64,000 bases of DNA from Clostridia bacterium (GTDB lineage: Bacteria; Bacillota; Clostridia; Oscillospirales; UBA644), in assembly GCA_017934975.1 (NCBI GenBank), contig JAGBIM010000006.1:2311-66310 (forward strand), written 5' to 3'. The notes beneath the pieces were generated by a model that did not search any database, was not told the DNA's origin, and was given only the letters and a program-made list of their open reading frames with translations. Both the position numbers and the translations under genes were made by a program. Below, one piece after another: positions 28,157 through 47,947 of the stretch (the stretch's first letter is position 1; every line of letters begins with the position of its first letter).

Positions 28157-28232
28157 AGGGGTATAGCTCAGCCGGTAGAGCAGCGGTCTCCAAAACCGCG
28201 TGTCCTGGGTTCGATCCCTAGTGCCCCTGCCA
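28157..28232 (+). tRNA. tRNA-Trp (CCA)
   Basis: 76-nt cloverleaf; anticodon arm GCGGT-CTCCAAA-ACCGC; GGTTCGATCC T-loop; encoded 3' CCA. Confidence 0.97.
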
Positions 28233-28235
28233 AGT

Positions 28236-28285
28236 AAAAATCCCGCAAACCGTTGCAAATCAACAGGTTGCGGGATTTTTCTTTT
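28236..28285 (+). terminator. hairpin/terminator after the tRNA
   Basis: AAAATCCCGCAA...TTGCGGGATTTT. Confidence 0.65.
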
Positions 28286-28377
28286 TATGCCATTTTGCAG
28301 GCTGACAAATCTTTTCATGTCATTTGACAAATGTTTTCCTGTTTTTTCCTTACTTTTCCGCCCTTTTCGGGCACAAA

Positions 28378-28397
28378 ATTTGTCAAAACATTTGTCA
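28378..28397 (+). repeat. putative integrase arm-type site (left)
   Basis: ATTTGTCAAAACATTTGTCA, identical at 47776-47795; inverted TGACAAAT at 28303 and 28325. Confidence 0.65.
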
Positions 28398-28742
28398 GAT
28401 TTTTTAATCCGAGATAATTTCATTCAATAATGTTATATACAAAATATTTGTGGAAATTGTAAATATGTTAAAAAACAAATACAACGGTGAGAAGTATACA
28501 CAAAACTATTTTCGTCCGAAGTCATTTGGCGAAAGTCCAGATTGGACCAGTTCGCCGAACGGAAGGTTCTGTAAAAATTAGACATAATTTTTTTCCTTTC
28601 TTTTTTGAATTATTTTATTGTTTTCGTTATAAGTATGAGCAACGAAAAAATTAAAAAGTTGTTTTTGAATAAAAATTTTCGACATTTTTTCTATCCGAAA
28701 ATAAAAACAGACGCCATCGTAACACCTCCTTTCAGGCATAAG

Positions 28743-28982
28743 AAAAAGCCGCTATACATACGCACTAATCCCTTGGTTGGGATTAATAAAAATATGTATA
28801 GCGGCTCTTTTGAGCCTAAATGGGCGCTACGCGGCGTCCTATGTGCGCTTAAGAAAACTCTCAAGCAGCTTGTCTTGGGAACCAATCCGTCGACATATGT
28901 TTATGTATGTGAGTGGCGGATGCAATGGCATACGCGGAACACTTTACAATATACTTTTACCATAAAATCTAACATTTGTCAA
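28743..28982 (-). promoter_or_regulatory. promoter plus structured leader/terminator
   Basis: TTGACA (28982-28977)-17 nt-TAAAAG; 14-bp stem 28747-28760/28793-28806 with U-run; AAAGGAGGT RBS beyond it. Confidence 0.45.
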
Positions 28983-29223
28983 CAGGATGTCTGGTTATTT
29001 TACAATTCCAGCAAGTTTTGCACTTTTTCCTCTTCGTTCTTGCGGGTGTTCCGGCGTGCTCCTCCGCATCTGTCATGGCGGCATGGAAGGGGAACGGGCA
29101 GCGGAGCAGGCCTGCGGGCCTGGAGACATAGATAAAAATAAATATAAATATAAATATATAGAATAGCAATGTTTCCCATAAGACAAGGAAAGACTCTCTG
29201 CATATAAACAGAGAGTCTATATC

Positions 29224-29415
29224 TTATCCTTTTACCTTTAAGTACTGTTCATATAATTCCTTATCCGAAGGAAGGACGGATTGCTCAAAAACTTTGCATG
29301 CCACACTATGAGCTACTTTCCATTGCACACACCTCGCATCCGCAAGAATGCATCTGCCCCCTACATAATTGCAACAGTGTCGCACGTTCTTTCTTATTCG
29401 ATTTGGGTCAATCAT
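29224..29415 (-). CDS. cysteine-rich VLP domain protein
   Basis: CCNY...C...CVQ...ACKVFEQSVLP pattern typical of Firmicute mobile elements. Confidence 0.75.
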   Translation of the reverse strand: MIDPNRIRKNVRHCCNYVGGRCILADARCVQWKVAHSVACKVFEQSVLPSDKELYEQYLKVKG

Positions 29416-29520
29416 TGATTACCACCGCCCTTCCACAATAAGTATGTAAGATGGGGGATGGTGATAATTTTCATAAAAAGACCGAAAGCCTTAAACTCTC
29501 GGTCTTCTTCGAATACTATG

Positions 29521-29844
29521 TTATACCCCGGGGTGTGTGGAAACGATTCCCGACGTTTTCGGAAAAGACGGATCTTTTTGCGTCATTGCCAACAGCCGAC
29601 AGGCCGCCCCTTCCGGATGATTTCGTCCGGACTCCCACGCTTCTACCGTTTTTACCGAAACTCCCATATATTTTGCAAAAAGCATCTGCGTTAATCCGGT
29701 GTTTTTACGAATCGTTCGAATTTCTTCGGGCTTAAATTTTTCTACGGGCTCCACGGTCAGAGTTGTGGTTTTTGCCTTTAATTTCCCTTTTTCGTAATCA
29801 ATTGCCTGTCCGAGTCCGGTTTTAATATCGTCAAAAATGCTCAT
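29521..29844 (-). CDS. XRE/HigA-like HTH antitoxin
   Basis: IRKNTGLTQMLFAKYMGVSVKTVEAWESG. Confidence 0.88.
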   Translation of the reverse strand: MSIFDDIKTGLGQAIDYEKGKLKAKTTTLTVEPVEKFKPEEIRTIRKNTGLTQMLFAKYMGVSVKTVEAWESGRNHPEGAACRLLAMTQKDPSFPKTSGIVSTHPGV

Positions 29845-29857
29845 AAAAACAACTCCT

Positions 29858-30205
29858 TCACCCTTCGTTTTCTTGCAGTTGACGCTCCAAGGCTTGAATC
29901 ATTTGTTTAATCTCAGCCCGCTCCGCATCTGTTAAATTATCCTTTTCATTTTTAGGATATGCAGTTATCAAAAATATTTTCTCGTAAACCTCAAAATCCA
30001 CATAAATGACACGTATGCTGCCGCTTTTCCCTCTTTGTTCAAAAGCAAACCGCATTTTTCGCACGCCGCCGGTGCCGCGCATTACCGCACCAACCGTTGG
30101 ATCTGCCAACAATTCTTCCTGTAAGCGTCGAAGGTCTGCATCGTTTAATCCGATTTTCTTCCACCTTGTGCGAAAGTGCGGAAGCTCTACAAACGTTCTG
30201 GTCAT
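29858..30205 (-). CDS. RelE/HigB-like type II toxin
   Basis: GTGGVRKMR, GKSGSIRVIY, AYPKNEKDNL; toxin precedes antitoxin. Confidence 0.88.
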   Translation of the reverse strand: MTRTFVELPHFRTRWKKIGLNDADLRRLQEELLADPTVGAVMRGTGGVRKMRFAFEQRGKSGSIRVIYVDFEVYEKIFLITAYPKNEKDNLTDAERAEIKQMIQALERQLQENEG

Positions 30206-31034: not shown

Positions 31035-31642
31035 TGACCGAATACAAAATGACCGGAATCTTAAAATCGGAACACACGGGAAAGGGTGCGAAAATTCAAT
31101 TCCCCACGACGGAAAAAGCATTTAAGGAACTGTTGTACGATCTGTCCGACGGGCATCCAGATACCCCGTGGGGAATATCCGGAATCTGTGTTCAAAACGA
31201 AGAAGAGGCCTTTGCGATTGCTGCGTGCAAGAATTTGTCGGCGATAAATTATTATGCCGCTCTAGCACAAAATTTCACGCGGGACGAATATGCCTTGTAT
31301 CAATTTTTGTTGCGAGCAGGGGTTTGCGTAAAGTACACGATGGATACCATCATAAATCTCGCGTTGAACGTCCATAATTTTACGGTGTGCGCGGAGATCC
31401 CGGATGCATACGCTTTGGGCAAGATGATTTTGGACACAAGCACCGAGGAGGAAGGGAAAGCACCCGAAGGATTTGAAAATGCTTCCAAGGATAAAATTGC
31501 GATGCTGGGCGAAATGATCTGCATCAAATCCGGCGGAACGTTTTACAACGGCTTTTATATCGAACCCAACGACAACTACCAACTGTTATACGACAGCCCC
31601 GCCGATGTCCCAGAATTCTTTCGCATTTCCATCCCCGTATGA
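31031..31642 (+). CDS. ArdA-like protein, tandem paralog
   Basis: NLSAINYY...IINLALNV...ALG...GTFYNGFYIE; ATGA overlap. Confidence 0.55.
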   Translation: MMTEYKMTGILKSEHTGKGAKIQFPTTEKAFKELLYDLSDGHPDTPWGISGICVQNEEEAFAIAACKNLSAINYYAALAQNFTRDEYALYQFLLRAGVCVKYTMDTIINLALNVHNFTVCAEIPDAYALGKMILDTSTEEEGKAPEGFENASKDKIAMLGEMICIKSGGTFYNGFYIEPNDNYQLLYDSPADVPEFFRISIPV

Positions 31643-31676
31643 GACAACAACGAAAAATAAATACCGTGCAAACGCA

Positions 31677-31716
31677 ATCAGCCCCCGAAGAAATCATCGG
31701 GGGCTGGTTGTTTTTT
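31677..31716 (+). terminator. rho-independent terminator
   Basis: CAGCCCCCGA...TCGGGGGCTG followed by a T-run. Confidence 0.7.
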
Positions 31717-31749
31717 AGGAAAACGTTAATGGTCGCGTTACTGCAGTTA

Positions 31750-32298
31750 AGGGGATTCTTTTCGCTGTGGAAAAATAGGTTGTGCCCAACGGAGCTATTG
31801 GCGTCAAGCACAGGGGCGGGGCTGATGAAGCGGCACCAGTAGGGGTTGTAATAGCGGGCGTTGAGGTAGTACATCCCGCTTTCGACATCGTAGTAATAAC
31901 CACGATAACGGAAGGGATTGTAATGACCGAGGGTGGTTGCCAGGGTTCCCGTAACGCCCAGATTGCAGCCCCAGGCATCGTAGGAATAGCGGACGACCAG
32001 CGTGCCCGAGGAATTGAAAATCCCCAGAACATCGCCGAAGATGTTTTTGTAATAGTAATAATCCTGTCCGTTCCAGTTCAGACCGACGGGGGAACCGTTC
32101 TCGTCGTAGTAATAATAGAGCTGATGGGTTACGGTGCCGTATTCGTCCTTGCGGGTTTCTGCGACGATGGTGCTGCCGTCCAGCACGTAGTGAACGGTTT
32201 CGGTAATTTGTCCGTATTCTTCCCGAACCTTATCCGTGCGGATGCCGTCGGAGTTGTAGGAATAGTTGTGGAGAACGTCGCTGCTGAAGTAAGAAGTT
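31750..32298 (-). pseudogene. orphan Rhs core fragment with no start and no intact toxin tip
   Basis: NPFRYRGYYYD...YYLNARYYNP core homologous to 37110-37625; preceded by an in-frame TAA; DPxG motif decayed. Confidence 0.8.
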
Positions 32299-32323: not shown

Positions 32324-32923
32324 TTAAATATTTGCAGGGAAAATAATAACTTTTCCCATCTGTTCCAAGGTCTTGATCGTATGCTTTAAGCGGATTTGAA
32401 AGTAATCCACAAGTTTTTGACTGAACCATGGAAAACAGAACCATTCCATTCCGTACGCAACTCCGATTGCCGCCATGGCTTGGTATCGCTCGTTTCCGAC
32501 CTGGGACAAGGGCCGTTCAAACCGTTGGTCATCCAGGCCAAACAATTCCTTCAGCCCTTCCGAAGTGAAATCGGACTTGCTTTTTTTGATTCCTTGTTCG
32601 ATCAGTTTTCGGACACTCTTTCGTTTGGAAAACAATGGGAAGGACGGATCCATATAACAAGACTTTTCCATAATTTCTTCCATGATTTCTTCCGATTCTC
32701 CAAGGATTTTCGGTTGTTCAAAAAGAAGAAAATCCTTTTTTCGACAATGGTACATGGACAACAAATAAGAAATTGCCCACGCCCCGGAATCAATATCACC
32801 ATTCAGAATATTGCGTCCTTTTCGAAACTCGTACGCCTCGGATTGAAAACCGTCATGAGCTTCAAAAAAGGCGGAGTGGCATTTCACAAGTCCATCGCAA
32901 GATATTATATACTCTTTCTTCAT
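32324..32923 (-). CDS. putative immunity protein with degenerate ABC-ATPase-like fold
   Basis: ATGA overlap with the upstream toxin cassette; GDIDSGAW and RPLSQVGNERYQA resemble Walker A and the ABC signature. Confidence 0.6.
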   Translation of the reverse strand: MKKEYIISCDGLVKCHSAFFEAHDGFQSEAYEFRKGRNILNGDIDSGAWAISYLLSMYHCRKKDFLLFEQPKILGESEEIMEEIMEKSCYMDPSFPLFSKRKSVRKLIEQGIKKSKSDFTSEGLKELFGLDDQRFERPLSQVGNERYQAMAAIGVAYGMEWFCFPWFSQKLVDYFQIRLKHTIKTLEQMGKVIIFPANI

Positions 32924-33954
32924 CCTGTAAACCTCACAAATTTTATGTCCCAAATGGGAATTGGCCCTGGCATAACAGACACTACGGGCTTATCAAGTTG
33001 CACTATAAAATTCTTGATTCCGTTATCCCTAGCGAAAGGAGCAATTGTTTTAAAAGAAATCACAACACCAAGGTGCGCTCCAGAACGTGCTATTGAATAA
33101 TCACTAGGGGAATGCTTCCAAGCAAACACATAATCACCTTCCCAGGGACTCCCTCGCAACTTTCCTTCTGTTTGTATTTTTTTTAGTGCATCCAGCGAGG
33201 TAACGTGATAATACGTTTCTCCAAATTCATATTTCTTTTTCTTAGGTATAGCAATATCTTTTGCTAATTCTTTCGTTATTTTTTTGGAATCTGATTTTGG
33301 AATGGAAGCTGACGGCGCTGTCACCGGAGGATTTTGTGTAATTGAGTCTGCTATACTATAACCTGCAATAGCACAGCCGACAAGATAGATGATTTCTCCA
33401 AAAGGCAAGACTCCATCAGCACCGCAAAGCCACCACATAGACGCTGCCCACCCTGCTGCGGCAGGGCTGCACCCTGTAGGATCGATGCGGTTAATAGGAT
33501 CATTTCCGCAATATGTAAAGAGGTTGCAGCCTACGGCACTGCCCGTGTCGATGACGGGGTCGGGGCTGATGAAGCGGCACCAGTAGGGGTTGTAATACCG
33601 TGCGTTGAGGTAGTACATTCCGGTTTCGTTATCGTAGTAATAACCGCGATAACGGAAGGGGTTGTAGCGGCCGAGGGTGGTTGCCATGGTTCCCGTAACG
33701 CCCAGATTGCAGCCCCAGGCATCGTAGGAATAGCGGACGACCAGCGTGCCCGAGGAATTGAAAATACCGAGGATATCACCAAAAATGTTCTTGTAATAGT
33801 AATAATCCTGCCCGTTCCAGTTCAGGCCGATGGGGGCACCGTTCTCATCGTAGTAATAATAGAACTGATGGGTTACGGTGCCGTATTCGTCCTTGCGGGT
33901 TTCTGCGACGATGGTGCTGCCGTCCAGGACGTAGTGCACCGTATCCGTAATCAT
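32920..33954 (-). CDS. orphan Rhs core plus C-terminal toxin (ADP-ribosyltransferase-like)
   Basis: Rhs core ending PINRIDPTG; tip with YYHVTS...I...G.L...YVF. Confidence 0.75.
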   Translation of the reverse strand: MITDTVHYVLDGSTIVAETRKDEYGTVTHQFYYYYDENGAPIGLNWNGQDYYYYKNIFGDILGIFNSSGTLVVRYSYDAWGCNLGVTGTMATTLGRYNPFRYRGYYYDNETGMYYLNARYYNPYWCRFISPDPVIDTGSAVGCNLFTYCGNDPINRIDPTGCSPAAAGWAASMWWLCGADGVLPFGEIIYLVGCAIAGYSIADSITQNPPVTAPSASIPKSDSKKITKELAKDIAIPKKKKYEFGETYYHVTSLDALKKIQTEGKLRGSPWEGDYVFAWKHSPSDYSIARSGAHLGVVISFKTIAPFARDNGIKNFIVQLDKPVVSVMPGPIPIWDIKFVRFTG

Positions 33955-34006: not shown

Positions 34007-34429
34007 CTACTTTATGTATTCTGCGATGAGTTGTTCAAACTCTTCTTTATCAAAAAAGAAATATCCGGAATTGTTTTTATTGGAACGTGTAAATGATTGA
34101 GAATCGTGATAGATGAAATCATAGTCTCCGTTGTAATATTCAATTCGGACAACGACGTATCCCTCATCAATGGAAAGCGGGGGGCCCCAACTTTTACTCT
34201 GTTTTATTTCGTTGAGTTTTTTGAGAAATCCGTTACGGTCTGCTATTTCGTGCAGCACCGTATATTCGAACTCATACTCTGCTTCGATATACCGATCAAG
34301 ACGGACGATTTGGACCGACTTTACGTTGTCGGGATTGCAGATATATCTTGAAGGCCCAAAGAAACCACAACTACATAATGAGAAAAGAAGAACAAAAACC
34401 ACTACAAAAACAGCAATTTTCTTAGTCAT
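34007..34429 (-). CDS. putative immunity lipoprotein
   Basis: Lipobox LCSC; GAGGAG RBS directly after the toxin stop. Confidence 0.7.
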   Translation of the reverse strand: MTKKIAVFVVVFVLLFSLCSCGFFGPSRYICNPDNVKSVQIVRLDRYIEAEYEFEYTVLHEIADRNGFLKKLNEIKQSKSWGPPLSIDEGYVVVRIEYYNGDYDFIYHDSQSFTRSNKNNSGYFFFDKEEFEQLIAEYIK

Positions 34430-34440
34430 ATAAATTCTCC

Positions 34441-35493
34441 TCACTTGAAAAACAACGGAATTAAACTCCAGTATGAGGTGTATTGTCCGGGAGGGAGAGA
34501 CGGTTTTCTGCGTTGTGTCAACGTTGAGTTCCCCAGCCGGTTTGCTTCTGCTTCCCACGGATAAGAATAATAGTCGTAAGGCAATTTCCCATTTTGGTCT
34601 AAAATACTAATAGTAACAGAAGGAATTGCAACCTCAAAAGTAAAGTTAATAATTCCTTTTTCTCTAAACTGTAAAACATGTCCGTATTCATGGTTTAGCG
34701 TGTTTGCGTTTTGCTGTGATTTGCTTAAACCAATAATTCCGAATGAAAAGGATGTATCAAGAGGTGTTTTTATTACAAGAGCGCCTTTATATCCGGAAAT
34801 ATAATTTGATTCAAAAACAGTATCTTCACTTTGATTATCGATATCAAAATTTTTGACATCTTCAACTATGTCTTCGCAAAATTCGACAACAGGATCAATA
34901 ATATTTTCTTTAACCCAACCAACGGCTTTTTTTATCCATTTCGGCCAATTTCCGGTATAGTCTGCATAGTTGACGGGATCATTGAAGCAATAGCAAAACA
35001 AATTATAGCCAACAGCAAGCCCGTCGGCCCCCAAGTATTGAGGCTCGTCAGCACTGATAAAGCGGCACCAGGAGGGGCGGTAGTAGCGGGCGTTGAGGTA
35101 GTACATTCCGCTTTCGGTGTCGTAGTAATAGCCACGGTAACGGAAGGGATTGTAGCGGCCGAGGGTGGTTGCCATGGTTCCCGTAACGCCCAGATTGCAG
35201 CCCCAGGCATCGTAGGAATAGCGGACGACCAGCGTGCCCGAGGAATTGAAAATCCCCAGAATATCGCCGAAGATGTTCTTGTAATAGTAATAATCCTGCC
35301 CATTCCAGTTCAGGCCGATGGGGGCACCGTTCTCATCGTAGTAATAATAGAGCTGATGGGTTACGGTGCCGTATTCGTCCTTGCGGGTTTCTGCGACGAT
35401 GGTGCTGCCGTCCAGCACGTAGTGACGGTTTCCATCGTTACCCCATAGTACGGATTCCGATAAGAAATTCCCGCGCTGGTGCTTTGTTTTCAT
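34441..35493 (-). CDS. orphan Rhs core plus HExxH metallopeptidase-like tip
   Basis: Rhs core ending PVNYADYTG; HEYGH and PWEAEA; start codon uncertain. Confidence 0.78.
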   Translation of the reverse strand: MKTKHQRGNFLSESVLWGNDGNRHYVLDGSTIVAETRKDEYGTVTHQLYYYYDENGAPIGLNWNGQDYYYYKNIFGDILGIFNSSGTLVVRYSYDAWGCNLGVTGTMATTLGRYNPFRYRGYYYDTESGMYYLNARYYRPSWCRFISADEPQYLGADGLAVGYNLFCYCFNDPVNYADYTGNWPKWIKKAVGWVKENIIDPVVEFCEDIVEDVKNFDIDNQSEDTVFESNYISGYKGALVIKTPLDTSFSFGIIGLSKSQQNANTLNHEYGHVLQFREKGIINFTFEVAIPSVTISILDQNGKLPYDYYSYPWEAEANRLGNSTLTQRRKPSLPPGQYTSYWSLIPLFFK

Positions 35494-35501
35494 CTGCTGC
35501 T

Positions 35502-36503
35502 TTACTCTTTCGTTACGATAAAGGTTTTCAAATCAACTGAATAGAGTTCTTGCAGTGGCGTTATTCCGAACAAATGAGAATCCGTTACGAAGAGACTGTC
35601 AAATGTTTTTTCGGAAATCCGTTTCTTTTCTCCGCTTTCAAGATCAATGCACCATAAGCCGTTTGTTTCCAGATCTGAAACATTCCAAACAACGGACCCG
35701 GATGAGTTTCTTTTTTGAAAAGATAAATACAAATATTTATCATTAACCGCAATCCTAATGTGATTTTGGTCTGGAATGGGTTCCCCAAACAACGAAATAT
35801 CTTTTTCTTGGAAACTATTCAGATTAAGAATATTGATGGAATCTGAAATGTCATCAAAATGAACAACTGTATCCTCATAAAAATAGAGATCATCGTAATA
35901 TGGGTTAACTGTATACGAAGTGTTAAAACTGTCTACAACACCGGTATTTAAAGAATATACGACTAATTCTCTGTTGGTCTCTCCTACATAGTATATAAGG
36001 TCTCCGTTTACCCAAAAACAATAAACATCTTCTGCGATTTCTTTTTTCTGACCTGTTGAGAAGTTCTGAAATAAAAATCTTCCCTCTACACCAGAAATAT
36101 ATACAAGATTATTATTATGAACATAAAAATCATAAACGGGATCCATTACAACATCCGAAGCCCCGGTATCTATAGACATGCGGTAAAGGCTATTTCCGTC
36201 GAGGTAATACAAATATCCGTTGTCAAGCATAAACTTGTTTACGCCGTACACGGTTCTTCGGGCACCATCTTTTTCCCACACAGTAATACAAGGAATGAAT
36301 AGCCTTGTGTTCCAAATCGCGACACAGTCATCGCTCTTGTCCAAGAAATTTTCATTTCTGATATAATTATTTGAATTGGTTTTCGAATAATTGGAAGAAA
36401 TCAACACATTCGGAATTTTTCGAGGAACAAAGAACCATAGAAGCACAACAACGAAGAGGAGAAAAAGGATTACACCCAAAGAGATCAAAAAAAACTTTTT
36501 CAT
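35502..36503 (-). CDS. membrane-anchored beta-propeller-like protein (DUF5050-like), putative immunity
   Basis: N-terminal transmembrane helix; GYLYY/NLVYI/DLIYY repeats; ATGA overlap with the Rhs stop. Confidence 0.65.
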   Translation of the reverse strand: MKKFFLISLGVILFLLFVVVLLWFFVPRKIPNVLISSNYSKTNSNNYIRNENFLDKSDDCVAIWNTRLFIPCITVWEKDGARRTVYGVNKFMLDNGYLYYLDGNSLYRMSIDTGASDVVMDPVYDFYVHNNNLVYISGVEGRFLFQNFSTGQKKEIAEDVYCFWVNGDLIYYVGETNRELVVYSLNTGVVDSFNTSYTVNPYYDDLYFYEDTVVHFDDISDSINILNLNSFQEKDISLFGEPIPDQNHIRIAVNDKYLYLSFQKRNSSGSVVWNVSDLETNGLWCIDLESGEKKRISEKTFDSLFVTDSHLFGITPLQELYSVDLKTFIVTKE

Positions 36504-39500
36504 GAAAACAGGCCTCCTATCAATTTTGTTGCAATCCGCTTACCTGCAGCGCGACTTACGTAAAAAAGAAATTCTGCTGTTCTTAATTTTATGACCTCGG
36601 AATTTACATGATTAAAATAAAGATTGGGTATAAGTGCATTGTCCTCTTTTAGTATCTTTTTATAAAAAAAGTCATATTTCTTAAAATTTCCTCGTAACAA
36701 AGCTCTTTTGGTAACTTGTACACAGTTACGATATAATAAGTCGTAAGAAAAATTTTTGCGTTGAAGATCGTATATATAAGAAATACTTCCAGAAAAATCT
36801 CCTTCAAAATATATCATTTTCTCATATCCTTTTTCAGGATCGTTTGCCGAATAATGCTTGTTTATACCCTCAAAAGATAAGTCGCCACCATACGGCTCTA
36901 AAAATTCATAGGAGCCAGTTTTTCCCGAAAAACCGCCTCGATTGCTTCCCCAATAGAAATGAAGCCATTGTCCATTTTCGTCTTGAAGTAACAGGCCTGA
37001 ATGCCCTAATCCGCCAACGGCATCTTTATCTTGCAACCAAATTGCATCTTCTCCGGTGAGATCAAAATAACACACGGGAGAATTATTGCAGTAAACAAAC
37101 AAATTGCATCCTACGGCGTTGCTGGCGTCAAGCACAGGATCCGGGCTGATGAAGCGGCACCAATAGGGGTTATAATAGCGGGCGTTGAGGTAGTACATTC
37201 CAGTTTCGTTATCGTAGTAATAACCGCGATAACGGAAGGGGTTGTAGATTCCCAGTGTGTTTGCCATGGAGCCGGATCGGGAAATGCTATTCCCCCAGGC
37301 GTCATAGGAATAACGAACCACCAAAGTCCCTGCGGAATTGAAAATGCCGAGGATATCACCAAAAATGTTCTTGTAATAGTAATAATCCTGCCCGTTCCAG
37401 TTCAACCCGATGGGTGCACCGTTTTCATCGTAATAGTAGTAGAATTGGTGCGTTACCGTATCATAGCCGTCTTTGCGCGTCTCGGAAACGATGGTACTGC
37501 CATCCAGTACGTAGTGAACGGTTTCGGTAATCTGTCCGTATTCTTCCCGAACCTTGTCGGTTCGAATTCCGTCGGAATTGTAGGAATAGTAGTGGAGAAC
37601 GTCACTGCTGAAGTAAGAAGTCAGTTCTCGGCCGTTCCAGGTGTAGGAGGTGTCGAAGTCCCAGGTAACGTTCCCCATGGCATCGTAGTAGAAGGAGCTG
37701 CTGCGCTCCCCGATGCCATAGAAATTGATACCGATATAATTCCATTCTTTTGCGGTGTACTCAATTTCTTCACCCAGATCGCCCACGGTGAAAGAATAGG
37801 ATCTGCGGGAGAGAATATTGCCGACCGTATCGTAGGTGTAGGTATAGGAAATCCCCGCATCGGCGTTGTCTTCCCGAATGAGGAACCCGGTGACGCTATC
37901 GTAGGTATACTTGTTGATCAGTTGGCCGTTGCGCAGAACCCGAATGACCCGACCGACGGAATCGTATTCGTAGGACAAGGTTTCGTTCAGTGCGGAGTTC
38001 GTTTCCGCGTTCACCACGTCCGAAGAATAGCCGGTAGTGCCGTTCCAACCCGGACGGAAGGAGTATGTCGTTTTGAAAAGCTCCGTTCCTCCGGCGTTGC
38101 GCAGGCTGACGTTGTTCAAACGGTGGAGATAATCGTAATTCAACGCGCGGGTCAGGCGATTGGTAATGCTCCAGTTTTCCAGACGGTCCGCTTCACCGTA
38201 GGTGGGGACGTAGGAAAGGGAGGTGGACCCCAAGGTATAATTAAGACCGGAGGTGCGATTTTCCGCATCGTAAGTGACGGCGGTGGTCATTTCGGGGACG
38301 TTTGCCGCCGTATAGTGAGTGTAACCCGTGACGCGGGAAAGGGTATCGTAGGAGTAGTCGGTATAATACCCCTTCAGATTGTTCTGATTCCGTAGAAGAT
38401 TTCCGTTGTCGTCGTAGGAGAAGACGAAGGAGGGCGTGACGGCTCCGTTGCGGTAGATTGCGGAAAGGAGATTTTGGGCATTGTAGCCGTATTGCTCCGA
38501 ATAACCGTTGGCATAGGTCATGGAAGCAAGCTTCCCGTAGCCCTGCTGATAGGTATAGGTGACGAGATTCGTGTTGCCCGATCTCAGAGAAATCAGGTTT
38601 CCGAAGGCATTCCGAGAGAAGGTAAAGCTGTTTTTGGTGGTGGAAACCTTTTCCAAGAGAAGGGCATCGTACTCGTTGTAGGTGTAGGTTACAGGAGCAT
38701 TCGAGGAAAGGACGCCGTCGCTTGTTTCGATGCCGCCGATGTAGGTTCTTGCCAAGGTTTCGTTGGGATTGTATTCGTAATTGGTAAGGATTCCGTTTGC
38801 GTTGCAGGAGGAAATCAGCTGATTTGCGTAGTAGTAGCTTGCAGAGGTGTTCCCCGTGGTATCGTAGGTTTTGAAAACGAATCCCTCGGAAGTGTAGGTC
38901 TGTTCCGTGCGGAAGGCCGACGAATCGGTAACGCCTTCGGCGGTACTCGTGATTTCCGAAGAACGGACCTGGCCGTAGCCGTTATAGGTATACTCCGTGT
39001 GCAGGTCCAGAGGCAGATCTGCAGAGGTGATATTGCGATTGAAGAACCCCGAACTATAAGAATAAGATGCACTTTCAGAGGTTCCGTCCGCCTTGTTTCG
39101 GGATGCGGAGACGAGGCGGTTCTCGTTATCGTAGGAATAAGAACGGTCGCTTCCTACGGAAGAGCGTGTGGCGGTCACATTGCCTTTGTTATCGTAATCG
39201 ACGTTTTGATAAACTCCCGCCGTGAGGGTTACTCCGTCAAAGTATGCCGTATTGACGTTGTTCTCGTAAACGCATTCCACGGTGATGGACTCGATGGAGG
39301 TGATTTCGATATCCGGTTTTGACTCCACTATGAAAGAGCCTGCTACGTATTGCCATTCGTCGCAGAGCCATTGGAAGGGGATGTCTACGGTACGGGTGAA
39401 GGTTTCGGGAGCCGTCCCGGAAAGGGAAGCGTTATACGTGATCTTGGCTCGGAGTGCAAAGGCGGCACCCGTATCGGCGGTGTTCATGGAGTCCGCCTTC

Positions 39501-42208: not shown

Positions 42209-42368
42209 CTGGGATTCTCCTTTTCTGATTTTTTTGTATGTCAACGGCAAAGCCGCAATACCCAAAAACAAAAAAATGGTTGTATCCTGTCTTGACGATA
42301 TTTAATTGTATATGCAAAATTCGACTTGCTTCAGAATTTTCAGAACCAAAAAAGCTTTTGTTGATTAA

Positions 42369-42397
42369 AGTATAGCACAAATTTTGTCTCGTGTCAA
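42369..42397 (-). promoter_or_regulatory. sigmaA promoter upstream of the Rhs gene
   Basis: TTGACA-17 nt-TATACT with extended TG. Confidence 0.65.
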
Positions 42398-42979
42398 TAG
42401 CATATTTTCGTTTGTTTCTTATCAAAAAAAGGCCGTTTTTACAGTATTTTTTTGATATTTGTCGAATCGTGTTGAAGAATGACTTTCACAACTGCAAAAA
42501 GGCGGCATTGTCACAAAAAGTTAAGATTTTTCGAAAAATGGGTTAACGATTATCCTCAATATTTTTTATTAATAAAACACTCCAAGCCTTGTTGACTTGG
42601 AGTGTTTACGAATATTGCCGCAGAGAACGGGTTCGACGGAACATCTTTTTTCAGGAGTATGATTATATATTCCAACAATCGGGTGATGCGTTTGGTTTTG
42701 TGAATAAAGGCTAATTTTATGAGGATTTATGCAAAAGTTACTCTTTGTATAAAGTTAATTAAGATTACACCCTCTTAATTATTTTTGATATATTGCAAAC
42801 ATAAAAATACTCAACAAACTTATAGCAACATCTATAGGTACTGCTCCAACTGTTATTTTCCTTAGGTTCTTGTATAATAATGGAGAAGGAGGATACTTCT
42901 TTGGAATTTTGAGAAACCTCCTGCAGAATTGCTCCGCAGGAGGTCACTTTTACGTATAAGAAAACTGTTTCAGCGTAAC

Positions 42980-44272
42980 TTACGCCCCAGCAGGAACTGG
43001 AATTACGCGAATGTCTTCATATGTATACTCATAGGTTGTAACAGTTCCCCGAGAATCTGTTCTGTCTTCTTTTATTTTATTTCCGTATTTATCGTAGGTG
43101 ATTTCAAAAGGACCACCCTCGAATCCATGCCCGATTTCTTTTAACAAATGGCCGTTTTCGTCATAAGCATATTCTTCGATAACAGAAACCTCACCGCGCT
43201 TATTTGACGTTTTTTTTATGAGATTTCCGTTGTTATCATAGATATACGCGAGCTCCCAGCTATCAGTACTATTATGATTAGTCTCCTTTAAGATGTTACC
43301 GCAATCATCATAGACATACAATGTTACGCTACGGAATCCGTAAGAATTTGTTGTGATTTTTTTTACGAGATTACCATTGTCGTCATAGGTGTTTTCCGTG
43401 GTCGTTGTTGTAGTGGTGGAGCCTTCTCCGTAACAATTTGTTTTAACTTGCTTCAATAAATTTCCATTATTATCGTAGGTGTTCTCAGTTGTATCGACGC
43501 GTCCTTCGGAATTTGTATAATTTTCCTTTAGCAAGTTTCCGTTGCTATCATACGTGTACTCTCGAATCCCCTCATATCCGGTTCCGTCGTCTTTCATGTC
43601 AAGTTTCTTTAGCAGGTTCCCTTTCTCGTCATAAGTATATTTTGTAACGCTCGAAACTCCGGTATAACCTAAGAAATGGTCTTCTAACAATTTCCCGTAT
43701 TCGTCATAGGTATATTCTATGAGTGAAGAAAACTTATCGGATTCGATCCTATGTTCCTTTAATAGGTTTCCGTTGTTGTCGTAGGTAAACTCATTGGCAA
43801 TAACATATCCGTCGGCGCGAGTGAGGGTTTCGCTTAATAGGTTACCATGATTGTCATAAGTATTTTCGGTAGTATCAAAACCTCCTTCGTAATTTGATTC
43901 CAGTTCTTTTAACACATTCCCGTTTTGATTGTACTCACGGACATAAATCAATTCTCCGTTTTTATAGGTCTGCTTTTTTGTGTATAAAATTTTATAGCCT
44001 TCTCCACAGGAGCATTTGTATAAAAGATAACCTGCTCCGCAGGGGCCTTCATGTATCGATCCAAGCCTCTCACAACTATGAAAAACGTATTCCCTCGTCG
44101 AACACTGCGGGGGGACAATCGTTTTGACATATTTGTGAACGTGGTCGCTAATTTGTGAATCAGAATTGATGATAACATTGGAATTGCTTGACGTCTCCTC
44201 CCCACAGGCTGCAAGGCAGAATAACATACAAACAAGAATTGAAAGAGAAAAAAACTTTTTCACAAAAAACAC
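42980..44272 (-). CDS. lipoprotein with Cys/His motif and about 12 YD-like repeats
   Basis: Lipobox LAAC; repeated TYDxxGNLLKE. Confidence 0.8.
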   Translation of the reverse strand: MFFVKKFFSLSILVCMLFCLAACGEETSSNSNVIINSDSQISDHVHKYVKTIVPPQCSTREYVFHSCERLGSIHEGPCGAGYLLYKCSCGEGYKILYTKKQTYKNGELIYVREYNQNGNVLKELESNYEGGFDTTENTYDNHGNLLSETLTRADGYVIANEFTYDNNGNLLKEHRIESDKFSSLIEYTYDEYGKLLEDHFLGYTGVSSVTKYTYDEKGNLLKKLDMKDDGTGYEGIREYTYDSNGNLLKENYTNSEGRVDTTENTYDNNGNLLKQVKTNCYGEGSTTTTTTTENTYDDNGNLVKKITTNSYGFRSVTLYVYDDCGNILKETNHNSTDSWELAYIYDNNGNLIKKTSNKRGEVSVIEEYAYDENGHLLKEIGHGFEGGPFEITYDKYGNKIKEDRTDSRGTVTTYEYTYEDIRVIPVPAGA

Positions 44273-44278
44273 CCTTCC

Positions 44279-45010
44279 TTAGTCAAACATCTTAAAGATT
44301 TTGCTGACATCAAAGCCCGTCATGCTTTCGAACAAAGCGTTGTACAAAGCTTCTCCAATCAAAACGACCAAAACGATCAGGACCGTCGTCATGAGGGCAA
44401 AGCCCCAGACGGGGTCGCGGTTTTCTACCTCAATGGCCTGCAATTTCTGCCACAGAGAGGCGACGAGATAAACAAGTCCGAACAGAATAACCAGGATGAT
44501 GCCGTCCGCCCAGAACAGCCCCAACAGCATGCTGAACAGATATGCGCACGTGAGGGGGACGAGGGACGCTGCGAGCGCGTTCGACGTCTGGCAAAAGTTG
44601 GCGAAGGTTTGATGGTGAATGCAATGCAGCAGCCAATAACCCACGGCGAAAAGTACGAAGGAAATCAATCCGACCAGAAGGGACATTCCGAAGATTTCAC
44701 CAAAAGGCGGACGGACATATTTTGAAGCGAAGAGTTCTTGCATTAACACCGCAACGAAAAAGCCGTAGACAAGGATGGAAAATATCCCAAAACCCAGCCA
44801 CCCAAACCCGGTTCCCATTTGGGATGCTCCCGTTCTCGCCGGAAGTTTCCATTTTGTTTGAGGGGCGCTTTGAGAGGCGGCAACCGTTGTGACGGGCGGA
44901 ATAAAGACCCCCGTGCCGCCTTCGCTGGTTGCGGATTCCACAGGTTTCCCGCAATGGAGGCAAAATTTCGATTCAGTGCTGATTTCTTTCCCACATTTCA
45001 TACAGAACAT
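44279..45010 (-). CDS. zinc-ribbon membrane protein
   Basis: MFCMKCG...FCLHCG followed by about five transmembrane helices. Confidence 0.82.
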   Translation of the reverse strand: MFCMKCGKEISTESKFCLHCGKPVESATSEGGTGVFIPPVTTVAASQSAPQTKWKLPARTGASQMGTGFGWLGFGIFSILVYGFFVAVLMQELFASKYVRPPFGEIFGMSLLVGLISFVLFAVGYWLLHCIHHQTFANFCQTSNALAASLVPLTCAYLFSMLLGLFWADGIILVILFGLVYLVASLWQKLQAIEVENRDPVWGFALMTTVLIVLVVLIGEALYNALFESMTGFDVSKIFKMFD

Positions 45011-45035
45011 AACAGTTTCTCCTCTCGGTTTTTGA

Positions 45036-46292
45036 TTATTGATAATATTGTTTTATAATGTAATCCGGGAGCTCGGTAGACATATACCAATCTCCGTCAA
45101 TTTTACGCAGACAGACCGCCCACGGGCCTCCCTCGTCTATATCGAACAGGGAGGTGGAGATTTCGCAATTGGTTTTCACTACGGCGTAATCGTCCCCGTA
45201 ATAGACGCATTCTCCGATATCCAGATCAAATTCAAAGCCTGCCAGATCCTTCACGAAGCCCACGGCGTCGGCAAAGGGAATTCGCAATCCGATCTTGGAA
45301 AGAAGCCCGTCCCAATCCTCTTCGTTCTTGTCAAGCTGTACCACGATTTCGGGATCGATGCAGCTCATCAGGTCGTCGTAATCCCAATCGTCAATGGAAT
45401 CTTCGAATTTTTGTACCACTTGAACGGGGTCTGGGGTAATAATGCCGAGAAAATCGATGGGGTATAACAGTTCCGGTTCAACGGCCGCAATTGCTCCCGT
45501 TGCGACTACCCCTGCGCCGATGATCCCCGCAATTACTTTTCCTGCGACACCGAGCCCCCCTGCGGTTGCCCCGACTTTCCCTGCCGTAACGGCGGCGGTT
45601 GTTGCGGTCCCCGCTGCCGTGGCTGCCGAGGTTGCGCTGGAAACTCCTTGAACAACGGCGGAAACCGCTTCTGCCGTCGGTTGCGCCGCAGAGGAGCTTT
45701 GGATCCACCGCAACAATCCGAGAATGGCGATGGGGCCGAGGCTATGCAGGCGGATGTTGTTTTTCTTTTCGTAGTCCGATACGAGCTCTTCCATCTTTTT
45801 TCGCCCGTACCGTACCCGACTTTTCACCGTACTTTCCGGAATCCCGAGAGCGCCCGCCGCATCGGCCGAGGTCATTTCCGCACCGTCCACCATGAGCAGA
45901 CAGATTCTTTGCTCTTCGGGCAGTTGTTCCATCAAGGTTTGTACAATTCTGGCCGTTTCTTCCCGATCGGCCACCGCCTCGGGGGAAAAGATTGTGGCGG
46001 TGTCCTCAAACTCAAGGGGGGTGTCTTCTTCGGGCGCTTCCAAATCGGTAAACAGCGTGGGCTGTTTCTTTTTAAAAAGGTCTTTGCAGCGGTTTGAAAC
46101 GATCTGCTTCATCCACACGTCGAACTTGGAAGGATCCTGGATCCGTTCCAGATTCAAAAACGCGGAAATATAGGCTTCCTGCACCAAATCTTCCGCGTCC
46201 TGTGCGTTTCGCAACAGGCGGAAGGCAAGGGCGTAAGTTTTGGCGTAGGTTTCGGTAAACAGTTGCTCCGTTGCCTTTGCGTTTCCGTTCAT
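45036..46292 (-). CDS. ECF sigma factor fused to a transmembrane helix and an extracellular domain
   Basis: DAEDLVQEAY (region 2), LPEEQR...GIPESTVKSR (region 4), Ala/Gly-rich linker and transmembrane helix; start uncertain. Confidence 0.85.
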   Translation of the reverse strand: MNGNAKATEQLFTETYAKTYALAFRLLRNAQDAEDLVQEAYISAFLNLERIQDPSKFDVWMKQIVSNRCKDLFKKKQPTLFTDLEAPEEDTPLEFEDTATIFSPEAVADREETARIVQTLMEQLPEEQRICLLMVDGAEMTSADAAGALGIPESTVKSRVRYGRKKMEELVSDYEKKNNIRLHSLGPIAILGLLRWIQSSSAAQPTAEAVSAVVQGVSSATSAATAAGTATTAAVTAGKVGATAGGLGVAGKVIAGIIGAGVVATGAIAAVEPELLYPIDFLGIITPDPVQVVQKFEDSIDDWDYDDLMSCIDPEIVVQLDKNEEDWDGLLSKIGLRIPFADAVGFVKDLAGFEFDLDIGECVYYGDDYAVVKTNCEISTSLFDIDEGGPWAVCLRKIDGDWYMSTELPDYIIKQYYQ

Positions 46293-46628
46293 CGCCTGCT
46301 GAACAAGCTTTGATCCATCATGCGTTATCGCCTCCGAAGGAAAAAATATCGTTTGGGAAAAGACGCCCTGGGAAGACCTCCCTTGATGTTTCTCCACAGG
46401 ACGTTCGCCCGCTGTTTGGACAAAACCGAACCGGAAACGAAGTCCCGGATTAACTTTGAAATCCGACGGTAATCTTCCATTTCTGCCGCCTCCTTTCGCG
46501 TCTTTCACAGGTAAGACGACGACGGCGGGCAAAAAGATTTAATTTTTTTGAGAGTTCACATTTTGTTTACAATTTCAATAAAAGGCAGAGGGATAACAAG
46601 CGATAGTCGCCTATTATCCCACGAATTA

Positions 46629-47345
46629 TTAATCCAAAAGGTCCGACCAGACCAAAAATTTGACGTCACCTTGAATGGAGCACAGCATTTCATATTGCAT
46701 CTGCTGATTTTTCAGAATTTGTTTTTGCCCTTCTTCCATTGCCCAGCGGTATTTTTGCTCGTCAAACATTTTCAAGGCTTCTCGCATGGTATCTACCCGA
46801 TCGGTCTCAAAGAGTCTTGCAATGTATTCGGTGGCCAGCGGATAACAATATTCAAAGGGGAGGATCGAAAGAATCTCTGCATTATCCGACAAAATATTAA
46901 CACCTTCCTGATGCACAGATTCTCCCTCTTTTTGCAAGGCCGTTCCCTTCCGCCTGGGCAAAAAGATAAAAAGAATGTAAATCAAGGTAAAAGGAATGAT
47001 CGCGTAAAGTGCAAAGATTCCAGCGTTAAGAGCAATTAAGATAGGGCGAAACCCAAAAACAAGGATTGGGACAAGAAGGATAATTCCCAAGGTCAAAAAG
47101 AGCAACCTGTAGAATCGAGTTTTGAGTGGTGCGAGCCGTTCTTCTGCTTCAGAACACAACTCATTTCCTTTTTGAATCCGCTCGTAGGCCTGTACGCAAA
47201 TGTCATGCGCATGGTGCAGGCGCTCAACCGCCATTCTTCTTTTTTCCGGACTCAACGCAATGGTTTTTACTTCTGCGGACGCCCCACAAAACCCGCAGAA
47301 CCGCTGTCCTTCCGGAATTTCTTTACCGCATTTTTCACAAGTCAT
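46629..47345 (-). CDS. zinc-ribbon membrane protein
   Basis: MTCEKCG...FCGFCG, two transmembrane helices, GGAGG RBS. Confidence 0.8.
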   Translation of the reverse strand: MTCEKCGKEIPEGQRFCGFCGASAEVKTIALSPEKRRMAVERLHHAHDICVQAYERIQKGNELCSEAEERLAPLKTRFYRLLFLTLGIILLVPILVFGFRPILIALNAGIFALYAIIPFTLIYILFIFLPRRKGTALQKEGESVHQEGVNILSDNAEILSILPFEYCYPLATEYIARLFETDRVDTMREALKMFDEQKYRWAMEEGQKQILKNQQMQYEMLCSIQGDVKFLVWSDLLD

Positions 47346-47514
47346 AGCTGTAAATCCTCCCCTTTGTATGAATAAGTTTATAGTAAGATAAAAATAAAGA
47401 ACTGATTTTCTGTACACCGCTTTTGGCGTGTTCACTTATAAGACGATCCGGAACGAAAAAAAGATTTAAACAATTTTTAATTTCACATTTTCTTAACAAG
47501 TCATTTTTGAATAT

Positions 47515-47668
47515 AAAAAAAGGTGTGCCTCAACAAGAGACACACCTAAAAAGAGCTTCCCTCATTGCTGCTAGACAATCCTTACCCTTAGAGAGCAACG
47601 GAAAAGAGAGAAAGCACCTTTTCTCAAGGTGATTTCTCTAAGGGCAAATTATAAGATTGTCTAGCAAC
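47515..47668 (-). ncRNA. candidate ~150-nt structured RNA
   Basis: Perfect TTGACA-17-TATAAT at 47700-47672, long nested stem, intrinsic terminator at 47547-47515. Confidence 0.6.
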
Positions 47669-47775
47669 CATATTATAATACAAATGTCGAAATCTGTCAA
47701 CAAGAGGCAATAAAAATAGTACATCAAAAAAAGAGTGAATCAAAGCACCGGTAAAAATGTAAAAAGTACGTTTGG

Positions 47776-47795
47776 ATTTGTCAAAACATTTGTCA
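47776..47795 (+). repeat. putative integrase arm-type site (right)
   Basis: Identical to 28378-28397. Confidence 0.65.
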
Positions 47796-47853
47796 AGAGC
47801 TTTTTTAAAGCATAAAAACCTTGGGAAATCTGGATTTTTTAGAGAGTCTGTGT

Positions 47854-47904
47854 GCGGTCTCCAAAACCGCGTGTCCTGGGTTCGATCCCTAGTGCCCCTG
47901 CCAA
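47854..47904 (+). repeat. attR: duplicated 3' part of tRNA-Trp
   Basis: 51 bp identical to 28183-28233; lacks the 5' acceptor strand and D arm. Confidence 0.93.
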
Positions 47905-47945: not shown

Positions 47946-47947
47946 GC

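Follow-up and report, generated by a model that had tools for sequence, protein, structure and literature searches.

How does a 19.7-kb island, bounded by attachment-like repeats, come to lie behind a tRNA-Trp gene when it carries no recognizable recombinase? The question arises from a 64,000-nt stretch of DNA (the window, whose positions are used throughout) of an uncultured gut Clostridia bacterium, taken from the 69-kb metagenome contig JAGBIM010000006.1 of assembly GCA_017934975.1 (1,828,535 bp, 71% complete). The island spans 28183-47904 and is inserted behind the sole tRNA-Trp gene among the 37 tRNAs found by whole-genome ARAGORN (Table 1). A perfect att duplication of 51 bp had been claimed from the letters alone, and the match measured was indeed 51/51 at a spacing of 19,671 bp. 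Together, the two ends show the hallmark of this type of island, an intact tRNA gene accompanied by a displaced piece of its 3′ part that points the same way. The GC content changes from 0.54-0.63 in the flanks to 0.35-0.54 across 28-50 kb, and the right flank opens with a multi-copy repeat (47905-48146). Since the displaced fragment is complete here, whereas it has decayed in three relatives of the genus (G011, G003 and G006), either the insertion is recent or the fragment has been kept intact. No empty site was usable for comparison, as synteny around tRNA-Trp is lost within the genus. In this genome, variability extends to the upstream side of tRNA-Trp as well.

Table 1. Features of the island and its borders, in window positions
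Feature	Position	Strand	Remarks
tRNA-Trp (CCA)	28157..28232	+	ARAGORN; Rfam tRNA, 61.4 bits; 3′ part is the island-supplied core copy
attL core	28183..28233	+	51-bp repeat, from 5′ arm of anticodon stem to tRNA 3′ end
Hairpin 3′ of tRNA	28236..28280	+	20-nt arms, 90% complementary; terminator-like
Left (P′) arm block	28301..28398	+	TGACAAAT at 28303 and 28324 (inverted), pyrimidine-rich spacer, tandem 20-mer 28378-28397
Cys_rich_VLP small protein	29224..29415	-	PF14194, 3e-10
HTH_3/MqsA-like/NadS-family antitoxin-like protein	29521..29844	-	NCBIfam NF041265, 61.7 bits (cut-off 60)
RelE-family toxin-like protein	29858..30205	-	PF06296; 12-of-12 consensus promoter 30266->30237 ahead
Degenerate orphan RHS C-terminal cassette	31524..32297	-	Core fragment retained, tail scrambled
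209-aa ORF downstream of orphan cassette	32324..32953	-	No family; putative immunity protein, by position only
Orphan RHS C-terminal cassette	32920..33954	-	Rhs_assc_core 3.4e-22; 175-aa tail without family
183-aa ORF downstream of orphan cassette	34007..34558	-	No family; putative immunity protein, by position only
Orphan RHS C-terminal cassette	34441..35493	-	Rhs_assc_core 3.5e-17; tail with HEYGH
333-aa protein after main RHS gene	35502..36503	-	PQQ_2 weak, 27.3 bits (cut-off 27.6); putative immunity protein, by position
RHS/YD-repeat toxin, 1923 aa	36500..42271	-	Hydrophobic signal-like N-terminus; Rhs_assc_core 1656-1740; 180-aa C-terminal domain without family
YD/RHS-repeat protein, 430 aa	42980..44272	-	Family search
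Zinc-ribbon protein, 243 aa	44279..45010	-	35% identical to 267-aa Zn-ribbon/Yip1 protein of G003
ECF-type sigma factor, 498 aa	45036..46532	-	Regions 2 and 4; 250-aa C-terminal extension without family
Zinc-ribbon protein, 268 aa	46629..47435	-	First gene of rightmost operon
12-of-12 consensus promoter, ~150-nt structured leader RNA, intrinsic terminator	47515..47700	-
Right (P) arm	47776..47853	+	Tandem 20-mer, then 58-nt spacer to core
attR core	47854..47904	+	Displaced tRNA 3′ part, 51/51 identical to attL
Terminator hairpin opening chromosomal right flank	47905..47946	+

The ends were sought in Logan contigs of four public runs from four studies. The island was present in 4/4 runs, and the excision in trans proposed by the sequence-only reading left no usable attB or attP junction and no excision product in their contigs. 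The only joint near the cores, 28197->47873 in run X6, was considered as an excision product and rejected: it is off register by 4 nt, its shorter side has 24 letters and it has no shared letters. It is best read as another organism's tRNA. No public contig bridges the whole core, the junctions rest on one metagenome contig, and in run X1 a 196-nt unitig of the left flank has a depth of 8.6 compared with 27-32 for the island unitigs. Both points would suit an assembly artefact in which DNA of two organisms was joined at a shared tRNA sequence. However, the 69-kb contig would then have to contain two false joins that arose independently, the end sequences of the island match other genomes of the same genus, and one of these (G011) has both island ends on a single contig. 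A 51-bp repeat is, moreover, short compared with the usual assembly words. We regard an artefact as very improbable.

The sequences just inside the cores were examined for arm-type sites. The identical 20-mer described earlier inside both ends, ATTTGTCAAAACATTTGTCA, was found at 28378-28397 and 47776-47795; it starts 144 nt past the left core and ends 58 nt short of the right one. Allowing up to two mismatches, the window contains two matches and 100 shuffles contain none. The 20-mer is not common genome-wide either, as the entire assembly has exactly two copies, one inside each island end. The extra inverted copies of TGACAAAT reported on the left were located as well (28303-28310 and 28324-28331). 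For the shorter TTTGTCA, 6 of the 11 copies in the window are no more than 215 bp away from the two cores, but the total of 11 in 64 kb is at chance level, being attained in 39 of 100 shuffles. The genome has 74 copies of the 8-mer ATTTGTCA (0.04 per kb). Both ends carry non-coding, conserved blocks (left approx. 85 bp, right 80-110 bp) built on a 10-bp motif, TTGACAAATG / CATTTGTCAA. On the left it occurs as a tandem pair with one to two inverted copies, and on the right as a tandem pair at a fixed 57-58 nt from the core. Within this motif, TTGACA equals the −35 consensus hexamer, and a regulatory role is possible for single copies.

Five genomes of other species in the genus (G001, G003, G006, G009 and G011) have related end blocks, with a tandem 19-mer in G003, G009 and G011 and single-copy or degenerate forms in G001 and G006. 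The left block (28324-28399) is 91-92% identical to its counterpart in G011, G003 and G009 over 74-76 nt. The right arm reaches 74% identity to relatives over 117 nt, and its spacing from 20-mer to core equals that of five aligned relatives within one base. In the relatives, the blocks bound modules of 1.5 to approx. 18 kb with unrelated cargo, some in tandem stacks: blastp at 1e-6 found no proteins shared between islands except one zinc-ribbon protein and Cys_rich_VLP. Tandem arrays occur in G003 and G009, and right arms recur within arrays, each followed by a 12-bp core; the smallest sequence common to all junctions, GCGGTCTCCAAA, comprises the anticodon stem and loop. Two small modules were found complete on single contigs, namely a HipA_C module of 1.55 kb that two right arms enclose (G003, L019) and a 2.3-kb Big_2 module with other arm repeats (TTTGTGGCA) at both ends (G002). 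A Thg1-RtcB module of approx. 9 kb, which is without a recombinase, is shared by G009 and G011 at 94-96% identity. Chromosomal genes beside the site show 80% and 84% identity between these two genomes, which points to exchange of the module after the two species split. Judged from sequence, the conserved end blocks fit cis-acting recombination arms with putative integrase binding.

Conserved blocks around variable cargo could also mark a hotspot without any site-specific mobility. The blocks would then be regulatory or structural elements of the tRNA-Trp neighborhood, such as operators, promoters or terminators, and homologous recombination between them would exchange the cargo. The −35 hexamer in the motif agrees with this, as TTGACA is used by the consensus promoters at 30266 and 47700, and the 20-mer itself gives a 10-of-12 promoter match; the variable upstream side of tRNA-Trp agrees as well. 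Nevertheless, G011 lacks the promoter match on the 20-mer (sequence read by eye), stretches of 80-110 bp offer little length for homologous recombination, and the recurrence of right arms in arrays, with a core after each, also speaks against such swapping. Further, a displaced tRNA 3′ fragment whose identity begins exactly at the anticodon stem is a signature of site-specific integration in the part of the Islander study consulted (PMC4383910). The hotspot explanation is therefore unlikely. Of the 3919 tDNA islands counted there, 2083 are anticodon-centred, and island sequence is described as restoring the split tRNA gene (PMC4383910). The present island resembles such tDNA islands in its regenerated tRNA gene, the same-orientation displaced 3′ fragment, the anticodon-centred site and the foreign base composition. 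However, the Islander filter, as given there, demands a tyrosine integrase (PMC4383910), and none was found here.

The absence of any integrase, relaxase or replication ORF had been noticed from the open reading frames alone, and profile searches for a hidden integrase in the island came back empty. PF00589, searched in six frames across the whole assembly, had no match in the window and one on another contig (C29:7282-7779). This lone match is cut by a contig end and is 25-28% identical to an integrase group of approx. 380 aa in the genus, a group whose distribution does not follow that of the arms. Of the 289 stop-to-stop frames of at least 40 aa in 28100-50300, 282 were scanned with Pfam, as were the main ORFs, and no family of integrases, serine recombinases, transposases, relaxases or replication proteins was detected. 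Six of the seven other frames were covered as ORFs, and the seventh, 50147-51601 (+), lies outside the island. Likewise, Pfam/NCBIfam-type domain scans of frames and ORFs found no coupling-protein family in the island. No helper recombinase for the island was found in the 71%-complete assembly. A recombinase of approx. 280 aa, which is without an arm-binding domain, adjoins the core in G009 and tRNA-Trp in G006; an 87% homolog in G007 sits elsewhere, and at 29 order-level loci neither tRNA-Trp nor the core nor the tandem repeat was found within 1.5 kb. An autonomous element with these arms was not found in the genome, metagenome, viral, phage and plasmid collections searched.

As the island is without a recombinase gene, it would be non-autonomous. 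Such elements have precedents: in the sections of PMC5704250 consulted, cis-mobilizable elements (CIMEs) are defined as having kept their att sites and lost the integration and transfer genes, and CIMEs and their tandem accretion are described for ICESt1/ICESt3-related islands of Streptococcus thermophilus. Our island agrees in both respects, with attL and attR kept and no integration or transfer genes found, and in its relatives one target likewise holds tandem arrays whose junctions are chimeric. In contrast to the S. thermophilus CIMEs, the host here is an uncultured gut bacterium of the Eubacteriales and the target is the anticodon stem-loop of tRNA-Trp. Also, the collections searched yielded no ICE or IME that carries these arms and could be the parent, and several modules of unrelated cargo share arms, which is more than expected from one decayed copy.

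We favor, with moderate confidence, the view that the island is horizontally acquired, non-autonomous, CIME-like and dependent on a recombinase acting in trans. Site-specific recombination of the tyrosine recombinase type would have placed it in the only tRNA-Trp gene, with strand exchange probably in or beside the anticodon loop. The tRNA 3′ part borne by the island would then complete the gene at attL, the original 3′ part being displaced to attR, while the arm blocks at both ends would be bound by recombination proteins. Excision or onward movement, if it still takes place, would depend on a recombinase from a related element at the same site or from the host.

The competing explanation is an immobile relic: an integrase carried by the element was later deleted, the island became fixed, the arms persist because this happened recently, and nothing mobilizes it in trans. 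The presence of the island in all four runs with no usable empty-site joint and the missing helper in the assembly are in line with this, as are two hints of decay from a larger element, namely Cys_rich_VLP, which may be a leftover, and a 201-aa integrase remnant inside the G011 island, directly abutting the next module. However, the left arm block retains 91-92% identity across species, compared with 77-84% for flanking genes and unrelated cargo, and non-functional DNA is not expected to outlive all neighboring sequence. The 51/51 core repeat and recombinase-less modules common to species at 94-96% argue in the same direction. We consider a relic possible, if doubtful. The sequence-only reading, which had left open a recently crippled element or a satellite excised in trans, is supported in part: intact att cores, arm-like repeats and the absence of an integrase stand, and the arms are conserved in the genus.

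A bolder and rather unlikely reading, offered tentatively, is a genus-wide platform at tRNA-Trp, where recombinase-less modules of 1.5-20 kb are stacked and exchanged, recognized via arms of approx. 100 bp and a 12-bp anticodon-loop core, and served by a single trans-acting recombinase, perhaps a simple Xer-like enzyme using the arms as accessory sequences. Cargo at the tRNA-Trp sites of the genus includes RHS toxins, restriction-modification, a Thg1-RtcB RNA-repair set and a HipA kinase. The IMEX (CTX phage, TLC, the gonococcal island), which use the host XerCD, are also mobile elements without their own recombinase, and Xer sites such as cer and psi have accessory sequences. Long accessory sequences beside a short core would suit a simple Xer-like enzyme such as the candidate of approx. 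280 aa, but the site here is a tRNA gene rather than dif, unlike in XerC/XerD-dif systems. Integron gene cassettes are likewise recombinase-less modules arrayed at one platform, each ending in a recombination site. In contrast to these, the present modules are 1.5-20 kb long and multi-gene with their own promoters; there is neither IntI nor an attC-like folded site, and the junctions consist of tRNA-derived cores and linear arm blocks. If the platform exists, it would be an integron-like system for large modules and not a set of decayed ICEs.

As for its cargo, the island carries a gene for an RHS toxin with a signal-like N-terminus. Three orphan toxin cassettes accompany it, of which two are intact and one is degenerate; genes for an ECF-type sigma factor and for a RelE/HTH pair are also present. 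The RHS assignment is based on PF05593, TIGR03696 and TIGR01643 and on a variable C-terminal domain behind the RHS-associated core; TIGR03696 was also found in three ORFs downstream of the main gene. The end of the RHS core exists in four copies (a repeat of at least 500 nt, 73-84% identity), each continued by a different tail, and no Pfam family matched the three C-terminal domains. HEYGH in one orphan tail (34441..35493) reads as a metallopeptidase-like motif. As far as the parts of PMC3967940 and PMC4436062 consulted describe them, Rhs/WapA polymorphic toxin loci share the YD/RHS repeats, the RHS-associated core with a variable C-terminal domain, and downstream orphan cassettes repeating the core end; this is a likeness of cargo, not of mobility. 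Here, by contrast, the locus lies in an att-bounded island, an ECF-type sigma gene precedes it and the C-terminal domains are without a Pfam family. The cargo reads as a competition module of an RHS toxin and a row of spare toxin/immunity cassettes, with putative immunity functions and a presumed secretion route, to which the ECF-type sigma factor with the zinc-ribbon membrane proteins and the RelE/HTH pair would belong. This pair may stabilize the island. The leader RNA is conserved and structured and has no Rfam match. Among the remaining genes, the DNA around Cys_rich_VLP (29070-29474) has a counterpart of 73% identity in G004, located 2.7 kb downstream of tRNA-Trp, and the Zn-ribbon/Yip1 protein of G003 (L019 2350-3153) stands right of the att array.

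Dependent mobile elements of the CIME type are a known kind, and the island would be a further example. It brings an interbacterial-competition arsenal into a gut commensal on an element without an integrase. Since catalogs like Islander require an integrase, att-bounded islands without one go uncounted. In the genus, the same end sequences serve unrelated cargo, defense genes included, and the arms, with their 10-bp motif at fixed spacing, offer a handle for hunting the enzyme. If one recombinase acting in trans moves all of these modules, a large share of the accessory-gene flux in uncultured gut Clostridia would pass through non-autonomous modules.

The island is bounded by a direct repeat of 51 bp, the two copies of which are identical (51/51) and spaced 19,671 bp apart. 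Its first base coincides with that of the anticodon stem (GCGGTCTCCAAAACCGC) in the tRNA-Trp gene, and its last lies one base beyond the tRNA 3′ end. According to a whole-genome ARAGORN search, this gene is the sole tRNA-Trp copy among the 37 tRNAs of the assembly (34 contigs, 1.83 Mb, 71% complete). Inward of the cores lies a 20-mer, ATTTGTCAAAACATTTGTCA, at a distance of 144 nt from the left one and 58 nt from the right one, and TGACAAAT occurs in two more, inverted copies on the left side; the window contains no further copy of the 20-mer with up to two mismatches (0 in 100 shuffles), nor does the genome. The sequence-only reading had described the duplication with this very spacing, the 20-mer inside both ends and the extra inverted copies, all of which is confirmed, and its concern that the 20-mer might be common genome-wide is removed, as each island end carries one of only two copies. 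The GC content across 28–50 kb is 0.35–0.54, down from 0.54–0.63. Low GC extends 2.2 kb beyond attR, but this stretch could not be bounded as a second island because no additional att core was found inside or to the right of the island (up to three mismatches).

Coordinates of the island, its flanks and corresponding elements in fetched loci (L) of related genomes
Feature	Location	Strand
tRNA-Trp(CCA), single tRNA of the window (ARAGORN)	28157–28232	+
Left att core	28183–28233	
Right att core	47854–47904	
Two more inverted copies of TGACAAAT	28303 and 28324	
Metallophosphoesterase and BspA-type protein genes upstream of tRNA-Trp	18156–18638 and 24704–27475	
Tandem units upstream of tRNA-Trp	27490–27900	
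Multi-hairpin repeat	47905–48146	
Low-GC stretch beyond attR	47905–50190	
12-of-12 consensus promoter, structured leader (about 150 nt) and intrinsic terminator	island right end, 47515–47700	-
268-aa zinc-ribbon protein	next after right-end leader	-
ECF-type sigma factor, 498 aa, long C-terminal extension	after 268-aa zinc-ribbon protein	-
243-aa zinc-ribbon protein, then 430-aa YD-repeat protein	after sigma factor	-
RHS protein, 1923 aa, hydrophobic signal-like N-terminus	after YD-repeat protein	-
RelE-family/HTH_3 (MqsA/NadS-like) pair, consensus promoter ahead	left end	-
Cys_rich_VLP gene	left end	-
Leader homologs	L129 1501–1693; L130 1501–1632; L131 1501–1683; L133 1449–1656	
Conserved post-core hairpin	L019 297–345; L028 432–485; L022 about 8610–8660; L009 9920–9964	

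Directly to the right of attR lies the multi-hairpin repeat, copies of which (83–92% identity) are found in the same genome (G000; C15:104795, C4:145207, C8:19020, C8:20150) and in the related genomes G010, G002 and G005; the repeat is possibly a small REP-like or MITE-like element. A comparable hairpin-rich stretch follows tRNA-Trp and a decayed core in the relative G006. Upstream of the tRNA gene, a unit of about 150 bp is present three times in tandem; every unit contains perfect 18-bp hairpins together with a GC-rich stem (CCGACGGAT..ATCCGTCGG), and numerous copies exist in this genome and throughout the genus. The metallophosphoesterase gene is situated directly upstream of tRNA-Trp in five relatives (G001, G003, G006, G009, G011) and about 9.5 kb upstream in the window, where the intervening DNA holds the tandem repeats and the gene of a 923-aa BspA-type leucine-rich-repeat protein. 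The upstream side of tRNA-Trp is, therefore, also a variable region.

Searching all six frames for PF00589 yielded no match in the window and a single one in the whole assembly, located on C29 and truncated where this contig ends. Pfam scans of 282 of the 289 stop-to-stop frames of at least 40 aa in 28100–50300 and of the long ORFs, together with an NCBIfam run on 21 ORFs, detected no integrase, serine recombinase, transposase, relaxase or replication families. Thus, the initial statement that no integrase, relaxase or replication ORF is recognisable in the island stands, and a hidden integrase did not come to light.

All notable cargo is encoded on the minus strand. Downstream of the 1923-aa gene of the RHS toxin family, the end of the RHS core is present in three extra copies with 73–84% DNA identity, each containing TIGR03696 and each with a different tail. 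Two of these cassettes are intact (350 and 344 aa) and one is scrambled; each is followed by a family-less ORF positioned like an immunity gene. The same layout is found in Rhs/WapA polymorphic toxin loci with orphan cassettes (PMC3967940, PMC4436062). No Pfam family was assigned to the three C-terminal toxin domains, the RHS N-terminus or the sigma factor extension (E up to 1), and the cargo DNA 42300–47800 has no relatives in 45 family genomes except for the leader RNA and, in G003, a stretch of 83 nt. Within the orphan-cassette region, 32714–33380 and about 35382–36715 have next to no contig cover in three public sequencing runs (X5, X6, X8), in which the remaining island is covered and the RHS gene shows many differing sites. 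The missing cover, as weak evidence, suggests that cassette sets differ between strains.

The leader at the right end (47515–47668, minus strand) folds far better than shuffled sequences (z = −7.35) and has no Rfam match (E up to 1). Homologs with 70–87% identity were found in G001, G002, G008 and, from another genus, G012. When aligned, four of five copies, including that of the window, have a consensus promoter and all five have a terminator, and RNAalifold predicts 50 pairs, 13 of which have compensatory changes. According to this prediction, base pairing is possible between the conserved CAAUGAGGGA and the 5′ half of the terminator. Genes downstream of the copies vary (zinc-ribbon protein, DUF1538, DUF4230 and two unknowns). 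The leader looks like a riboswitch-like attenuator and is a candidate for an undescribed cis-regulatory RNA.

Related genomes share the ends of the island rather than its content. Searching 40 of them with the left junction, homology in several genomes of the genus passes the tRNA into the first 170 bp of the island and then stops. In this left block, which consists of TTGACAAATG, a pyrimidine-rich spacer and the tandem repeat, the window shares 91–92% identity with G011, G003 and G009. Six copies of the right block, from the tandem repeat to the core, align with at most one gap, and that of the window is the most diverged (74% over 117 nt). The tandem repeat is carried by G003, G009 and G011; G001 has a single-copy form and G006 a degenerate right arm. 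In the fetched loci of relatives and a tandem-repeat scan of the collections, the arm family is limited to the genus: right-arm matches occur in 3 of 401 genomes of the order, all within the genus, and the phage and plasmid collections contain no arm match. The exact 19-mer is present at 18 loci in genome_contigs, only 7 of which, from three genomes of the genus, share the arms. At its 29 loci in metagenome_contigs and one in viral_contigs at most the repeat and the nearest bases are shared, two degenerate arm patterns have no match in viral_contigs, and these metagenomic and viral matches to the repeat are chance only. Between the islands, the zinc-ribbon protein and Cys_rich_VLP are the only common proteins (blastp, 1e-6). 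The G011 island, for example, carries DUF2806, peptide deformylase, Nmad3, TipAS and a C5-methylase with Bpu10I-like nucleases, as well as a 201-aa integrase remnant and a Thg1/WYL/tRNA-Leu/DUF2828/RtcB set.

In some relatives such units form arrays. On one G003 contig (L019), a right arm is followed by GCGGTCTCCAAA, a conserved hairpin and a single HipA_C gene, and then by another right arm and a tRNA 3′ part that has decayed; the HipA_C unit represents an entire module of 1.55 kb, stacked behind a preceding one. G009 has this combination of right arm, core and hairpin on two contigs, ahead of the Thg1-RtcB set on one of them and of a 279-aa tyrosine recombinase on the other. At three array junctions, the hairpin (GGCAGACGC..GGTCGAACGAG..GCGTCTGCC) comes immediately after the 12-bp core; in G011, it abuts a truncated integrase gene. 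Modules beginning with it have no tRNA 3′ part and could, therefore, be inserted without breaking the tRNA only behind another element. In G002 (locus L013, G002:C82, 1960–4390), a 2.3-kb one-gene (Big_2) module reaches from tRNA-Trp to a 46-bp repeat; its arms are laid out as in the island, with another repeat, TTTGTGGCA, present three times at one end and twice at the opposite end, and the module appears to represent a second specificity type of this kind of element. The one sequence that all junctions share is GCGGTCTCCAAA, the 5′ anticodon stem and loop, which is why we place the putative strand exchange there. In the Islander catalogue of tDNA islands, 2083 of 3919 islands have anticodon-centred sites, more than in any other class (PMC4383910).

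Among the candidates examined, no helper recombinase was identified for the island. A recombinase of about 280 aa, with SAM-like and catalytic domains and without an arm-binding domain, adjoins the core in G009 (L028), and a 57% homolog follows tRNA-Trp in G006, the island of which also ends, on another contig, in the right arm of the family. On the other hand, an 87% homolog in G007 and the copies in G002 and G011 are all located at other places. Homologs exist in 109 of 301 genomes of the order, and at 29 other loci in the order, neither the core nor tRNA-Trp lies within 1.5 kb. This enzyme is a weak candidate. Three others were rejected: the 201-aa remnant of G011 has a single other match in 46 family genomes (32% identity); a group of integrases of about 380 aa is present in 6 of 11 other genomes of the genus without correlation to the arms; and the C29 fragment of the assembly is just 25–28% identical to this group and unrelated to it and to the 280-aa recombinase alike.

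Over about 8 kb, the recombinase-free Thg1-RtcB modules of G009 and G011 share 94–96% identity, compared with 80% and 84% for the genes flanking tRNA-Trp in these genomes. A perfect copy of the displaced tRNA fragment is found in the window and decayed ones in G011, G003 and G006. On balance, we lean slightly towards an island that is still mobilisable in trans. That it is instead a fixed relic appears less likely. Against mobility, the island is present in Logan contigs of all four runs (X1, X5, X6, X8; four studies, animal gut metagenomes), and no contig bridges a core, the search covering 4 of 24 listed runs in the form of contigs rather than raw reads; rare forms are invisible in contigs. 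One joint near the cores was rejected as an excision product, as it is off register with one side of 24 letters. Left and right flanks were also searched across the genus for an empty site, but no attB comparison is possible because gene order around tRNA-Trp is not conserved. In X1, the left-flank unitig (28045–28202) has a depth of 8.6 compared to 27–32 for the island unitigs (28204–47883). As the simplest guess, the flank varies between strains; the island may also have more than one context.

With its att sites kept and integration and transfer genes lost, the island fits the definition of a cis-mobilizable element (CIME), and the arrays in relatives match the tandem accretion of CIMEs (PMC5704250). 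It falls outside Islander, which asks for an internal integrase, and is neither a Xer-exploiting element (IMEX) nor an integron cassette. A genus-wide platform, in which recombinase-less modules would be served by one enzyme via their shared arms, is conceivable, if improbable.
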